From contig JANWLD010000003.1 in NCBI GenBank assembly GCA_025451045.1, forward strand, positions 69,690-133,689: a stretch of 64,000 nt of DNA, in the 5' to 3' direction. This document shows positions 4,114 through 64,000 of this stretch, piece after piece. The DNA comes from Candidatus Saccharimonadales bacterium. Its GTDB lineage: Bacteria; Patescibacteriota; Saccharimonadia; Saccharimonadales; 2-12-FULL-41-12. The position numbers and the translations under genes were made by a program. The notes under the pieces were generated by a model. It was not told the DNA's origin. It made no database searches and worked only from the letters and a program-made list of their open reading frames with translations. How positions within the stretch are numbered: position 1 is the first letter of the stretch; each line of letters begins with the position of its first letter.

Positions 4114-5331
4114 TTGAAAAAGATGACTGCTTATGCTAAGATACAAGTGGTATTTTCAAAATACAAACCAAAAATAAAAATAGTAAAAATGCGAAAAAAC
4201 GCCTCACACCCAAGTAGAGATATTGTCCTGTTCAGCAAAGAGGGTCTGTTGGCTATGGTTATGGTATTTGCTCTTGTTTTTGCGACAGTAGGTTCTTCAC
4301 TGGTAAGCGCCGACAAATTTGACGAGAAGATAAAGGCTCTGGCCAGAGAAAACAACAAAACGGCTTCAGCCCGCAACGAGCTGGGCGCGGAAGCGGATAA
4401 CCTTAGCGACCAGATTGGCAAACTGCAGGATCAAATAGACGCCAAACAAGCTGCTATTAATCAGCATCAGGAAGAAGTCGACAAACTAAAAGTTGAGATT
4501 GAAAAAGCCCAGAAAGAACTGGATAGACAAAAGGAAGTCCTGGGCGAATCAATCCGGGCGATGTACCTGGAGGGCGACATCTCGACGCTCGAGATGCTGG
4601 CTACCAGCAAGAACTTGAGTGATTATTTTGACAAGCAGCAATACCGCGAATCGGTCCAGAACAAGATAAAGTCCACGCTGGATAAGATTACCCAACTGAA
4701 ACTGGATCTGAATACCAAGAAGACAAAGACCGAAGATTTGATAGCCGAACAAAAGGATCTAAAAGAAGAACTGGTCGGCCAGCGTTCGGAAAAAGACCGC
4801 TTGCTTTCACTCAACGAAGGCCAGCAAAGCGAACTTAATCAGGATATAAAGGCTAATAATGCCCGAATTGCCAAACTACGCCAGCAACAGGCGATTGAAA
4901 ACGCCCGGCACTTCAGCGGTGTAACTGTTATCGCCGGCCACAATGGCCGCGACAGCTATCCGGACGCTTGGCGCAACGCGCCGCAGGACAGCCGTCTGGA
5001 CAGTTGGGGTATGTATAACCGCGAATGTGTTAGCTATACAGCTTGGAAAGTCTATGAAAGCGGCCGCTTTATGCCGTACTGGGGTGGTCGGGGCAATGCC
5101 AACCGTTGGGATGACAACGCCCGCGCCGCCGGTATACCGGTAAGTTCTACGCCCCGCGCCGGCGATGTTGCGATTGCCCACTGGGGTGCGTTCGGCCACG
5201 CCATGTATGTAGAATCGGTCAATGGCGACGGCACCATCAACATTAGCCAGTACAACTGGGACTATAACGGCACTTACTCCGAAGCTTACCACTTCTCAAC
5301 AAGCGGACTGGTTTTCATACATTTTAGGTAG
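4114..5331 (+). CDS. Secreted coiled-coil + CHAP-domain peptidoglycan hydrolase (PcsB-like architecture)
   Basis: N-terminal TM/signal segment (LLAMVMVFALVFATVGSSLVSA) and a roughly 200-aa heptad-rich coiled coil. The C-terminal CHAP-like region has Cys (NRECVSYTAW) and His (GHAMYVESV) motifs. The start is uncertain (TTG 4114, ATG 4123 or ATG 4189). Confidence 0.8.
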   Translation: MKKMTAYAKIQVVFSKYKPKIKIVKMRKNASHPSRDIVLFSKEGLLAMVMVFALVFATVGSSLVSADKFDEKIKALARENNKTASARNELGAEADNLSDQIGKLQDQIDAKQAAINQHQEEVDKLKVEIEKAQKELDRQKEVLGESIRAMYLEGDISTLEMLATSKNLSDYFDKQQYRESVQNKIKSTLDKITQLKLDLNTKKTKTEDLIAEQKDLKEELVGQRSEKDRLLSLNEGQQSELNQDIKANNARIAKLRQQQAIENARHFSGVTVIAGHNGRDSYPDAWRNAPQDSRLDSWGMYNRECVSYTAWKVYESGRFMPYWGGRGNANRWDDNARAAGIPVSSTPRAGDVAIAHWGAFGHAMYVESVNGDGTINISQYNWDYNGTYSEAYHFSTSGLVFIHFR

Positions 5332-61207: not shown

Positions 61208-62068
61208 TTATTTCAGGTGCCATTGGTTGTTGCCCAAAGGACTTATGGCGCCTTTGATTTCAAGCATAGAAAGGGTTTGCTGAAAAAGCCGTATATTTAA
61301 ATTACTCTGTGCCAGTAGTTCGTCGCCGCTGTTAATACCGTTGCTGAGTAAATTTAGTAGAACGGATTCTTGTTCATTGTCACCGTAAATATCAGTTTGC
61401 TCCATTTGCTTCGGCTTTATGCCTAAGGCTTCAAAAATATCCTGTCCGCTGGTTACCATTACCGCGCCGGTCTTTAGCAAGTTGTTGGTTCCGGTACTGG
61501 TCGGGCTGGTTATATTGCCCGGTACGGCTAGTACAGTCTTGCCTAGCTCCAGCGCGAAATTTGCAGTATATAAACTGCCGCTTTTCTCGGCTGCTTCGGT
61601 GACTAACAGAACATCTGACAAAGCGGCGATTATCCGATTGCGCTGGATGAAAGATTCTCTTCTTGGTCGAAAATCGTCTTCGTACTCGCTGACTAGCACG
61701 CCGTCTTTGGCGATAATGTTTCTAGCCAGTTGCCGGTGGCTGGCCGGATAAATTTCTTTGATGCCGCTAGGGAGAACGGCTACAGTTTTGCCTTTTGCTT
61801 TTAGCGTGCTCATGTGGGCGATACTATCAACGCCCAACGCCAAGCCGCTGATTATACAAATCCCCGCCCTTGCCAAGGAGCTGGCCATCTCTTCGGTTAT
61901 ACCGCGGCCATAACTGCTGACTTTACGCGAGCCAACTATACCGACGGTCGGCATATCAAGCAGTTTGTTGATATCACCTAGGACATTTAATTCCACCGGC
62001 GGCTTAGCTAATAGCTTAAGCCGTTGCGGGTAGGTTTTTGCCTTTTTGCTTATCCTTATTATCTTCAT
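61208..62068 (-). CDS. dprA: DNA processing protein DprA (Smf)
   Basis: VGIVGSRKVSSYG, ISGLALGVDSIAH, and a Rossmann-like fold pattern. The C-terminal winged-helix-like tail is short. Confidence 0.9.
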   Translation of the reverse strand: MKIIRISKKAKTYPQRLKLLAKPPVELNVLGDINKLLDMPTVGIVGSRKVSSYGRGITEEMASSLARAGICIISGLALGVDSIAHMSTLKAKGKTVAVLPSGIKEIYPASHRQLARNIIAKDGVLVSEYEDDFRPRRESFIQRNRIIAALSDVLLVTEAAEKSGSLYTANFALELGKTVLAVPGNITSPTSTGTNNLLKTGAVMVTSGQDIFEALGIKPKQMEQTDIYGDNEQESVLLNLLSNGINSGDELLAQSNLNIRLFQQTLSMLEIKGAISPLGNNQWHLK

Positions 62069-62108
62069 TTACACTTTTTTGATAAATGTACAATTTTATA
62101 TTTAAGTA

Positions 62109-62137
62109 TTGACATAAAGTAACATTTTTGCTAAAAT
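62109..62137 (+). promoter_or_regulatory. Consensus sigma70-type promoter driving the structured RNA
   Basis: TTGACA (62109-62114), a 17-bp spacer, then TAAAAT (62132-62137). Confidence 0.6.
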
Positions 62138-62143
62138 TGCAAC

Positions 62144-62520
62144 TTGTAAGTCCGCCTAGTCGGATTTAAGCACCTTACACCCTTCCGTTCCGCTGTATAG
62201 CGGATTTACGGAAAGTTAGATTGTTTTAGAGTGCAGGTTACCTGCTGGCTAAACTAAGTTGTTACCCTCCACTTAGTATAGCCTATCCGCTTATGTTAGC
62301 AGATGCTCTAAAGCAAGCTAACCCCTTTAACTATTGCAGTCACCCTCGGGTGGCAATTGCGGTACCCCGTTCAATGCGAGCCTAAACGGTTTGTTCGTTT
62401 AACGACGGAGAAAACACGATCCTTTACGAGTTTATGGGAATCGATGTTTCGCCGGGGTGGGTTGAAGGGTGTAATGAGTCTCTAGCGGTGCCCACCCCCT
62501 CTAGAGACTCTTTTTATTTT
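62144..62520 (+). ncRNA. Unassigned structured RNA (about 375 nt), either a stand-alone RNA or a long cis-regulatory leader
   Basis: No ORF of 60 codons or more in any frame. An 11-bp long-range helix TTACACCCTTC (62175-62185) / GAAGGGTGTAA (62464-62474) encloses at least six local hairpins. GGGGTGGG (62455-62462) is complementary to CCCACCCC (62491-62498) in the terminator loop. The RNA ends in an intrinsic terminator. Confidence 0.6.
62476..62520 (+). terminator. Rho-independent terminator
   Basis: A 10-bp stem GAGTCTCTAG / CTAGAGACTC (62476-62485 / 62501-62510) is followed by TTTTTATTTT. Confidence 0.8.
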
Positions 62521-62639
62521 GCTTGATTATCACGGTTGACGCTTCGCTCGTGACTACATAAAAGTCCACCGGACTTTTATGCCCTCTAGAGACTCTTTTT
62601 ATTTGCTATTTTGTTGTTAATATTGTAAAATTATCATAA

Positions 62640-63287
62640 ATGAGAATTAGTGATATTGGAAAACTGGCTAAAGCCGAAGCCGATGATAATTTTGAGCTGA
62701 GGGTCTGGCTTATAAAACAACAACACAGTAAAGATACTGAAAGGCGCTGGAAAATAGAAAGAGATCTGAGAAATGGCGTTGGTGAAGACTATGATGTGCC
62801 CGAGCAACTGAACGCTATACTACTTAAAAGGATTTTTAACTTAATGAACGGACTATGGAACACGGAAAGTTATGGAACTTTTACCTCCGAAATAGCTATT
62901 GGCAGACCATCCAAAGAGAATCCTCGCCCTATGCTAGATAATTTAAGAGGTATTAGGTCTTCGCAAACATTTAAAATACCAGGTGTAGGCAAACCGGTCG
63001 TTATGGATCGGTGGGATGGATATCGCGTCTATGGCATAGGTGAAAGAGATGAGTTTACTACCAGCCTAGGGCTGAGAGGCCAGCTAGGCTCTTTTGCACT
63101 GGTGGGAGAGGGTAAGAGTTTTTACATGATGCCTGAGATAACCGAATCGCCTACAGAAACACAGCTTAGCGGTTTAGGCCGGACTGCAACTTATCAACGG
63201 GATATTGAAACTTTAGTTAATATATATTCCACGCTTGATTTAGATAAATCAATAATGCACGAAGAACCGGTAATCCAACCGGTTTAG
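62640..63287 (+). CDS. Hypothetical protein
   Basis: 215-aa ORF with no motifs. Confidence 0.6.
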   Translation: MRISDIGKLAKAEADDNFELRVWLIKQQHSKDTERRWKIERDLRNGVGEDYDVPEQLNAILLKRIFNLMNGLWNTESYGTFTSEIAIGRPSKENPRPMLDNLRGIRSSQTFKIPGVGKPVVMDRWDGYRVYGIGERDEFTTSLGLRGQLGSFALVGEGKSFYMMPEITESPTETQLSGLGRTATYQRDIETLVNIYSTLDLDKSIMHEEPVIQPV

Positions 63288-63302
63288 ACAATAAAACTGC
63301 GG

Positions 63303-63396
63303 GCCAGGTAGTGAGCTTTTGAGAATAACTCTGCCAAACGGCAGGGTTATTTAGTTCGCTTGAAAGAGCGAACTGCTCAAAAGTCTACTACTTGGC
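63303..63396. repeat. Z element, copy 2 (about 94 nt; opposite orientation to copy 1)
   Basis: The arms GCCAGGTAGTGAGCTTTTGAG / CTCAAAAGTCTACTACTTGGC are the reverse-complement versions of the copy 1 arms. The inner hairpins are AATAACTCTGCC-aaac-GGCAGGGTTATT and AGTTCGCT-tgaaag-AGCGAACT. The right arm overlaps the last codons of pth. Confidence 0.8.
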
Positions 63397-63946
63397 GGGT
63401 TTCGGCTGGGAGTTCCCCGCTGCCGTGGGCGTACTCGCTCAAGATACTGTTAGTTTCCTGGAGCAGTAGTTTCAGGTTTTCTTTTTGTTCTTTGCTGAAT
63501 TTACCAAGAACGAAATCTTCGCTGGCGATTTTCTCAGGTGATTTCGGTCCGACGCCAATTCGCACCCGGCCAAAATCTTCACCGCAGTGTTCTATAAGCG
63601 ATTTGATACCGTTATGGCCGGCAGATTTACCGCCGATACGTGTTCTGATAGACCCGAAGTCAATGTCCAGTTCGTCATGGACTACCAAAGTTTTTGAATT
63701 GTCTATCCGGTAAAAATGCTGGACAGCATGCAATGCTACCCCGCTGACGTTCATAAAAGTCGTCGGTTTTATCAAGATGATTTTGTTATTGCCCAGAGTA
63801 TGTGAAGTAAGCTCGCACTTCAAATCTTTTTTGTTAATCCAGTCTGGGAAATCTTGTTTTTTAGCAAAATTATCTAAAGCATCAAAGCCGATGTTGTGAC
63901 GCGTGCCAACGTAATTTTTACCGATATTACCAAGGCCAACAATCAA
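63377..63946 (-). CDS. pth: Peptidyl-tRNA hydrolase
   Basis: MIVGLGNIGKNYVGTRHNIGF, VVHDELD, and GGHNGIKS-like (SAGHNGIKS). Confidence 0.93.
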   Translation of the reverse strand: MIVGLGNIGKNYVGTRHNIGFDALDNFAKKQDFPDWINKKDLKCELTSHTLGNNKIILIKPTTFMNVSGVALHAVQHFYRIDNSKTLVVHDELDIDFGSIRTRIGGKSAGHNGIKSLIEHCGEDFGRVRIGVGPKSPEKIASEDFVLGKFSKEQKENLKLLLQETNSILSEYAHGSGELPAETRQVVDF

Positions 63947-64000
63947 GAGCGTGTTGCCCAGCCCTAAGGTATAAAAAGGCGCGGATGATTCAATTACCGG

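Follow-up and report, generated by a model that had tools for sequence, protein, structure and literature searches.

A probable new class of structured noncoding RNA encoded between pth and dprA in Saccharimonadales

A predicted RNA gene in the dprA spacer and its homologues

The stretch of DNA analysed here (hereafter the window) comprises 64,000 nucleotides of a Candidatus Saccharimonadales bacterium, whose source lineage is Saccharimonadales (Saccharibacteria/TM7) in the candidate phyla radiation (CPR). Between dprA (61208-62068, - strand) and a 215-amino-acid open reading frame (ORF) at 62640-63287 (+ strand), it contains a 570-bp spacer that current annotation reads as empty; no ORF in 62069-62639 attains 60 codons, the longest reaching 42 amino acids. 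We consider it probable, on balance, that this spacer holds a free-standing gene (62109-62520, + strand) for a previously unclassified structured noncoding RNA (ncRNA) that acts in trans, probably as a ribonucleoprotein (RNP) or compact particle. As delimited by its promoter and terminator, the transcript would be approximately 375 nt long. Its fold shows compensatory changes across more than 90 distinct homologues; an earlier note on this DNA, made from the sequence alone, had already described a multi-branched structured RNA here.

Three sets of homologues were used. Loci of the first were picked through TopA only and then searched with the RNA by nhmmer, which placed it next to dprA in 7 Saccharimonadales genomes (E values of 8e-47 to 1e-17). 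The second consisted of at least 120 metagenome loci fetched by an exact match to the 19-mer of the terminator loop (AGCGGUGCCCACCCCCUCU), and the third of 5 more distant loci reached via DprA or TopA. The counts below on 77-95, 122 or 127 homologues draw mainly on the 19-mer-fetched loci, and invariance of the terminator loop within that set holds by construction, since its loci were fetched with the exact 19-mer of that loop. The same 19-mer is identical in 8 homologues found via TopA, independently of the RNA sequence. In the alignment of the TopA set, the promoter hexamers are nearly fully kept, several internal blocks are invariant, and the changes in the terminator stem are compensatory. 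Altogether, the family numbers more than 130 loci. Full-length identity of the homologues to the window is only 36-59%, and TopA identity between carriers is only 54-66%. Homologous intergenic regions, which the earlier note had wished to see collected from relatives, therefore exist, and their helices change in a compensatory manner.

Promoter, terminator and coding strand

The proposal that the RNA has its own consensus promoter and intrinsic terminator holds: both are present (Table 1) and conserved in the homologues. Indeed, all sequence elements listed in the earlier note could be located, their coordinates agreeing to within 1 nt (the G-rich GGGGTGGG sits at 62454-62461, 1 nt off). The promoter matches the consensus at 11 of 12 hexamer positions, carries a TG extension, and is the top promoter-like site in 61500-64000. 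Among 95 homologues, the -35 box is TTGACA in 87 and TTGACT in 8, the -10 box is TAnAAT or TAnnAT, the spacer measures 17 nt in 93, and the TG extension occurs in 94; the distance from promoter to terminator-loop motif is 283-511 nt. We take this to be a near-consensus extended -10 promoter of the sigma-70 type that drives the RNA gene, with transcription expected to start at approximately 62143-62146.

The terminator was passed over by a generic scan because that scan permits only loops of 3-8 nt. In the homologues, its stem is maintained by covariation: pairing is 99-100% at pairs 3-10, and both sides have changed in 18-51 sequences at seven of these eight pairs. A run of at least five T follows in 109 of 122 loci. 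This hairpin would stay in the mature RNA as a structural part.

The 3' end of the gene is partly duplicated. An exact copy of the terminator 3' half with its T-run (CCCTCTAGAGACTCTTTTTATTT) occurs at 62497-62519 and again at 62582-62604, 85 nt apart, and the 62-nt segment between the copies (62520-62581) has a small hairpin, AAAAGTCC-ACCG-GACTTTT. The 23-nt duplicate looks like the scar of an insertion or duplication at the RNA 3' end, of the kind found at tRNA and transfer-messenger RNA (tmRNA) genes.

The RNA is predicted to be a noncoding product of the + strand. Folding of 62140-62520 against dinucleotide shuffles gave -144.6 kcal/mol and z = -8.2 for the + strand, and z = -5.5 for the - strand. 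The covarying helices contain numerous U.G pairs, which on the opposite strand would appear as A.C, and a covariance model of the P3 domain (R1) scored the + strand at 76-102 bits and the reverse at 20-31 bits. The - strand was rejected as the functional strand on the U.G asymmetry, the covariance-model scores, the z-scores and the polarity of promoter and terminator; a T-box-like string in the reverse complement of the terminator loop was rejected with it and is absent from the + strand. A small-ORF reading was also rejected, as no ORF is conserved in the homologues, where the longest sense ORF varies from 11 to 79 codons.

The arrangement of these signals bears on an explanation in cis, according to which antisense transcription and a shared bidirectional terminator insulate or tune the - strand row pth-dprA-topA. 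All three genes are on the - strand, with the RNA gene occupying the gap between pth and dprA in the antisense direction. Between the dprA start codon and the divergent -35 box there are only approximately 20-40 nt in the window (62069-62108) and the few loci checked by hand, so that a dprA promoter would have to overlap the RNA promoter or the RNA gene itself, or else dprA would have to be read through from pth. Furthermore, in 16 of 82 loci fewer than 60 nt lie between the pth stop codon and the terminator motif, and 26 of 122 have an A-run ahead of the terminator stem. Nevertheless, interference would need no ~375 nt of covarying helices and invariant loops, pth can be anywhere from approximately 0 to 3 kb away from the RNA, behind unrelated insertions, and structure is kept specifically on the + strand. 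We regard a cis element as quite improbable; a cis role is possible as a side effect, which leaves the conserved RNA architecture unexplained.

A conserved core fold with an exchangeable 3' module

Pairing in the P3 domain was assessed on a MAFFT alignment of 77 sequences that was blind to structure, and was compared with 500 shuffles and with slid controls. RNAalifold on a full-length MAFFT alignment was dropped because the variable hairpins were too badly aligned, and an anchor-based analysis was used instead. P3 is supported by covariation: its 20 pairs are 93% paired, and 13 of them are changed on both sides. For the counted structure of P3 and P3b together, 0 of 500 shuffles scored as high, and the slid controls were 32-49% paired. 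The apical loop of P3b (UGUUACCCUCC) has invariant columns in all 77 sequences, its closing pairs covary (A-U to C-G), and in distant homologues the loop is altered yet C-rich (e.g., CCCCUUCCCC). The 5' hairpin P1 is also supported, with its outer 8 pairs 76% paired against 66% when shuffled (reached by 0 of 500 shuffles) and many double changes. The hairpin equivalent to P3c differs in sequence and length among homologues. A GTTAGC/GCTAAC hairpin that the earlier note had drawn in this region is specific to the window; its GCUAAC belongs to P3.

Directly after P3, P4 encloses the variable 3' domain and is paired at 99.4% in 89 sequences. At pair 9, 76 sequences have C-G and the other 13 have G-C, with zero exceptions; at pair 1, G-C occurs in 3. 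In the distant homologue L195, P4 is formed by CUCCUCAAC with GUUGAGGAG, which adds two further compensatory pairs. P4 bears on the 11-bp long-range helix (62175-62185 with 62464-62474) that the earlier note had proposed to close a multi-branched domain. The complementarity is perfect; however, GAAGGG (62464-62469) covaries with CCCUUU in 62323-62331, and as P4 claims it, only UUACA:UGUAA of the 11 bp stays compatible. In a constrained fold, UUACA (62175-62179) pairs with UGUAA (62470-62474) without being forced and stacks on P4. An 8-bp form, UUAYACCC with GGGURUAA, occurs in approximately 20 of 90 homologues, with C-G, U-A and U.G variants. The 11-bp helix may be an alternative or partial pairing.

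Within the module enclosed by P4, at least four or five architectures exist across the family. In the 63 homologues of the window type, P6 (RYGAG:UUCRY) appears as GCGAG:UUCGC, GUGAG:UUCAC, AUGAG:UUCAU and ACGAG:UUCGU. GGUGGG is present in nearly all homologues. In the window it belongs to the G-rich strand GGGGUGGG, for which CCCACCCC in the terminator loop is a candidate partner, and in other architectures it lies in a hairpin loop (CCUUCAA-GGUGGG-UUGAAGG or GUGA-GGUGGG-UCAC). A pseudoknot between GGGGUGGG and the terminator loop, as put forward in the earlier note, is plausible from their complementarity; where GGUGGG lies in a hairpin loop, the contact would be a kissing complex. GCACC (62170-62174) could likewise pair with GGUGC of the terminator loop. 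A fold constrained to P3, P4, P6 and the terminator lies just 4.5 kcal/mol over the free minimum.

By comparative analysis, the conserved core consists of the 5' hairpin, P3 with its C-rich-loop hairpin, P4, GGUGGG and the terminator hairpin with its CCCACCC loop. Versions of 235-290 nt were found at the same place in distant Saccharibacteria (L007, L195/L196, L197, L198 and L199, of which L195/L196 is labelled Nanosyncoccaceae by its source). They retain the promoter, P1 and P4, a long helix with a C-rich loop at its tip, the GGUGGG hairpin and the CCCACCC terminator loop. The family would thereby span at least the order Saccharimonadales.

The P2 position is a site of lineage-specific variation, occupied in homologues by a variable hairpin of 0-60 nt. 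Most family members have UUCUAACA there, just 5' of P3 (e.g., L001 and L111, at RNA positions ~45-60). It is absent from the window, and both the window and L009 carry an unrelated hairpin. UUCUAACA repeats CUAAC of the P3 3' strand and could instead pair with GUUAGA, a possible conformational switch.

Table 1 Coordinates of the predicted RNA elements in the window and of the related ORFs inserted downstream at other loci
Feature	Position	Strand	Sequence or pairing	Remarks
Promoter	62109-62137	+	-35 TTGACA (62109-62114), 17-nt spacer, TG (62129-62130), -10 TAAAAT (62132-62137)	
P1, 5' hairpin	62147-62168	+	UAAGUCCG / CGGAUUUA	Fold and covariation
Conserved strand	62170-62182	+	GCACCUU-ACACCC	G(C/U)AC(C/U)UU in nearly all homologues
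P2, lineage-specific inserted hairpin	62183-62213	+	UUCCGU/ACGGAA around (U)CCGCU-GUAU-AGCGG(A)	Fold
P3, 5' strand	62215-62232	+	GUUAGAUUGUUUUAGAGU	Pairs with 62305-62322
P3a, small variable hairpin	62233-62245	+	GCAGG-UUA-CCUGC	Fold; length varies, missing in some homologues
P3b hairpin	62252-62277	+	UGUUACCCUCC (62260-62270)	11-nt apical C-rich loop
P3c region	62279-62304	+	UAGCC (62279-62283) with GGCUA (62247-62251), then variable hairpin 62285-62304	Fold only
P3, 3' strand	62305-62322	+	GCUCUAAAGCAAGCUAAC	Pairs with 62215-62232
P4, 5' strand	62323-62331	+	CCCUUUAAC	Pairs with 62461-62469
P5 hairpin	62333-62363	+	AUUGCA...UGCGGU, apical stem GUCACC-CUCG-GGUGGC	Fold; hairpin of other sequence in homologues
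P6 domain	62376-62452	+	GCGAG (62376-62380) with UUCGC (62448-62452)	
Hairpins inside P6	62390-62413 and 62414-62447	+	Second includes CGAUCC...GGAAUCG	
G-rich strand	62454-62461	+	GGGGUGGG (GGGGTGGG)	Candidate partner of CCCACCCC
P4, 3' strand	62461-62469	+	GUUGAAGGG	Followed by UGUAA, 62470-62474
Intrinsic terminator	62476-62520	+	15-nt loop CGGUGCCCACCCCCU (62486-62500)	10-bp stem
Terminator stem, 5' arm	62476-62485	+	GAGTCTCTAG (GAGUCUCUAG)	
Terminator loop segment	62491-62498	+	CCCACCCC	Candidate partner of the G-rich strand
Terminator stem, 3' arm	62501-62510	+	CTAGAGACTC (CUAGAGACUC)	
Terminator T-run	62511-62520	+	TTTTTATTTT (UUUUUAUUUU)	
Related inserted ORF, L096	2719-3639			RNA-oriented coordinates
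Related inserted ORF, L082	118-1017			RNA-oriented coordinates
Related inserted ORF, L160	258-1094			RNA-oriented coordinates
Related inserted ORF, L194	3646-4488			RNA-oriented coordinates
Related inserted ORF, L149	8119-9063			RNA-oriented coordinates

Comparison with known RNA families

The RNA appears to match no described family. Rfam 15 gave no credible match, none reaching the gathering score in the 64-kb window or in 14 homologous loci, and a literature description of this Saccharibacteria RNA was not found. At E <= 10, scans of 801 nt and of the exact 391 nt returned only chance-level matches (RT-8, microRNA families, snoR77Y and sucA, 12-18 bits) that have no support in the family alignment. 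The 391-nt scan, which would have shown matches of approximately 13 bits upward, gave four, of 13-18 bits, none of them to ribonuclease P (RNase P), tmRNA, signal recognition particle (SRP) or 6S RNA. No tRNA or tmRNA gene was detected by ARAGORN in the window. Rfam, ARAGORN and motif scans therefore agree with the statement of the earlier note that signatures of RNase P, tmRNA, SRP, 6S, T-box and riboswitches are missing.

A highly divergent housekeeping RNA of one of these four kinds (RNase P, tmRNA, SRP or 6S), missed by the Rfam models, nevertheless deserves attention. The size would suit an RNase P RNA or a tmRNA, and the RNA has a promoter and a terminator to itself, contains long-range helices and is conserved throughout the order. 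RNase P RNAs of the CPR may fall below Rfam cut-offs (PMC8172020), for which reason signature motifs were scanned as well, in 92 family members and with motif patterns known for these families. The RNase P patterns for CR-I (G.AA..UC.G.G / GAAAGUC) and CR-V (AC...A....G..UA) occurred in 0-1 and 3 of the 92 members, respectively, and the window has neither; RF00010 and RF00011 (RNase P RNA classes A and B) gave no match at the gathering score or at E <= 10. The AAGUCC in P1 of the window recurs in only 10 of the 92 and lies in a covarying local hairpin. Pairing of the 5' and 3' ends, as in P1 of RNase P RNA, was absent from every fold computed. Patterns for the tmRNA T-arm and CCACCA occurred in 1 of 92 members, and neither a tRNA-like domain nor a CCA end nor a tag reading frame was found. 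For SRP, domain IV patterns occurred in 0-1 of 92, and no SRP model matched in Rfam. A resemblance of some subtypes to the SRP Alu domain (two kissing-loop hairpins joined by UGUAAU) was set aside, as it concerns those subtypes only and domain IV is missing. 6S RNA also gave no Rfam match, and its rod of approximately 180-200 nt with a central bubble differs from the branched fold of ~375 nt seen here. With the E <= 10 scan, ARAGORN and the signature motifs all negative, the ends unpaired and the terminator loop conserved as part of the RNA, we judge a missed housekeeping RNA very improbable.

Likenesses of a general kind remain. The family shares with class A RNase P RNA, including the CPR forms (PMC8172020), its length, a housekeeping-like conserved promoter and position, long-range helices that enclose domains, and peripheral helices gained and lost between lineages; in contrast, it lacks the P4/CR-I/CR-V signatures of RNase P, its ends are unpaired, and the terminator persists as one of its conserved elements. 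With tmRNA it has in common the size, a fold rich in pseudoknots and a dedicated promoter and terminator, and the variable-insertion hot spot at the 3' flank with the partly duplicated 3' end recalls tmRNA and tRNA integration sites; unlike tmRNA, it lacks the tRNA-like domain, the CCA end and the tag reading frame, and no integrase was seen in the insertions examined.

The large RNAs OLE, GOLLD, ROOL and raiA are closer in kind. They too have several hundred nucleotides, many conserved helices, candidate pseudoknots and highly conserved nucleotides, and form stand-alone units of one lineage in a gene context that shows no obvious function. On the other hand, the present family is hosted by Saccharibacteria, its terminator loop is a conserved structural element, and its 3' module is exchangeable. 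No covariance-model match to OLE, GOLLD, ROOL, HEARO or the raiA motif RNA was obtained. The RNA also differs from type III toxin-antitoxin systems, as it has no tandem repeats (a single 23-nt terminator duplicate) and the downstream ORF is unique to the window.

Mode of action: folded particle or base-pairing regulator

To our knowledge, very few bacterial ncRNAs longer than approximately 250 nt have deeply conserved pseudoknotted folds. Large ncRNAs of understood function (rRNA, RNase P, tmRNA, group I and II introns and, in part, OLE, ROOL and GOLLD) are ribozymes, RNP cores or higher-order assemblies. The deep conservation, helices and junctions of the present family would place it closer to RNP- or ribozyme-type RNAs than to base-pairing small RNAs. 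In the mechanism we propose, the RNA would be made constitutively and act in trans as a folded particle. Its terminator loop would dock on GGGGUGGG, possibly also on GCACC, and both RNA ends would thereby be tied into a pseudoknotted particle. It would most likely serve as the RNA part of an RNP or other structure-dependent machine, with the exposed invariant loop UGUUACCCUCC as the likeliest site of contact with a partner.

The main rival holds that the RNA is a base-pairing regulator like Staphylococcus aureus RNAIII or the actinobacterial 6C RNA, whose C-rich loops would pair with G-rich, Shine-Dalgarno-like regions of mRNAs. The family resembles both in its C-rich apical loops (UGUUACCCUCC and CGGUGCCCACCCCCU), one of them on the terminator hairpin, in its multiple hairpins and in its own promoter; the resemblance is functional only, homology not having been detected. 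In the close family, UGUUACCCUCC and the terminator-loop CCCACCCCC are both C-rich and invariant, and the P3b loop, as noted, remains C-rich where its sequence changes. CCUCC matches the anti-Shine-Dalgarno core. However, 856 kb of Saccharimonadales DNA showed no enrichment for complements of the loops outside the RNA gene, in a search that covered the neighbourhood of one locus per genome (13 sites versus 7-14 for control words), and there are none in the window. Mimicry of the anti-Shine-Dalgarno sequence is further weakened by the rarity of Shine-Dalgarno motifs in the window genes, some of which are apparently leaderless. Unlike RNAIII and 6C, the RNA has a conserved candidate partner for its terminator loop inside the RNA itself, deeper conservation and a more intricate fold; its size, pseudoknots and deep helix conservation are unusual for base-pairing small RNAs. 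We consider this rival unlikely.

Several points weigh against the folded trans-acting particle that we favour. While a conserved complementary target of the C-rich loop was not found, neither was positive evidence for an RNP, and no partner protein gene lies consistently adjacent to the RNA. Most homologues were fetched with the terminator-loop 19-mer, so that the set is biased. Both sides of the pseudoknot hardly vary, which makes covariation uninformative there, and the nested fold pairs GGGG elsewhere (GGGGU, 62454-62458, with ACCCC, 62364-62368). Several helices of the 3' module are ambiguous. Lastly, the ends, abundance and stability of the transcript are inferred from sequence.

A bolder version sees a lineage-defining large functional RNA, a ribozyme or the core of a new RNP, with the terminator-loop pseudoknot and the C-rich loop as functional sites; this seems rather unlikely to us. 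If true, the RNA would be kept in genomes of approximately 1 Mb for a biochemical task that is possibly done by proteins in other bacteria. A new RNA of such a type is unexpected in Saccharibacteria, whose genomes are only that size, and it occupies a fixed chromosomal position with one of the region's best promoter matches. Some Saccharibacteria are cultivable and naturally transformable, and transposon-insertion libraries exist (PMC10633639); the expression, essentiality and partners of the RNA would therefore be directly examinable, if cultivated strains carry it.

Gene neighbourhood and the downstream hot spot

Among the loci with enough flank, dprA lies divergently upstream in 63 of 75 and pth convergently downstream in 78 of 94. 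The RNA is evidently not tied to any co-oriented downstream gene. This bears on the suggestion of the earlier note that the RNA might be a leader of the gene at 62640, acting as a riboswitch-like element or attenuator through the terminator. In the window, the terminator does precede a co-oriented ORF, and the terminator loop has a possible alternative pairing. Nevertheless, no homologue of this ORF was found beside the RNA in 127 other loci, and the ORF, which has no match in Pfam, PHROGs or PADLOC, stands inside a hypervariable spot. Elsewhere the downstream content amounts to 46 families among 51 ORFs, or is often pth directly, on the opposite strand. With no conserved downstream gene, the RNA cannot be a leader of 62640 or of any conserved gene; the search for a riboswitch, T-box or attenuator leader also gave no Rfam cis-regulatory match. 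As the proposed pseudoknot uses the loop and not the stem, it would not compete with terminator formation. A leader function is accordingly extremely improbable.

The interval from the RNA to pth forms a hypervariable hot spot, in which the 51 ORFs of 46 unrelated families lie mostly on the RNA strand (loci L001, L004, L079, L082, L096, L101, L109, L128, L148, L149, L156, L160 and L194, among others). A common family among the inserted ORFs was rejected, as only 5 of the 51 are related. These five (278-314 amino acids; Table 1) form one fast-evolving family with an N-terminal motif like W..(G)..L.DP.(S/T)G.

Outside Saccharibacteria, the pth/dprA gap of a locus from another lineage of Patescibacteria (L010) holds an RNA-like unit of approximately 215 nt (4518-4732, - strand) that has a promoter and a terminator. 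Its predicted fold is a long rod (z = -5.2) that ends in the apical loop UCCCUCCUU and has internal loops rich in C; no resemblance to the RNA of the window was detected, and Rfam gave no match.

With regard to translation signals in the window as a whole, 44 of the 58 long ORFs, some of which are probably not genes, have no Shine-Dalgarno-like motif. Several genes have a TATAAT-like box approximately 6-10 nt before the start codon (starts at 2126, 30446 and 41735 on the + strand and 29797 on the - strand), which suggests that leaderless mRNAs may be frequent in the window.

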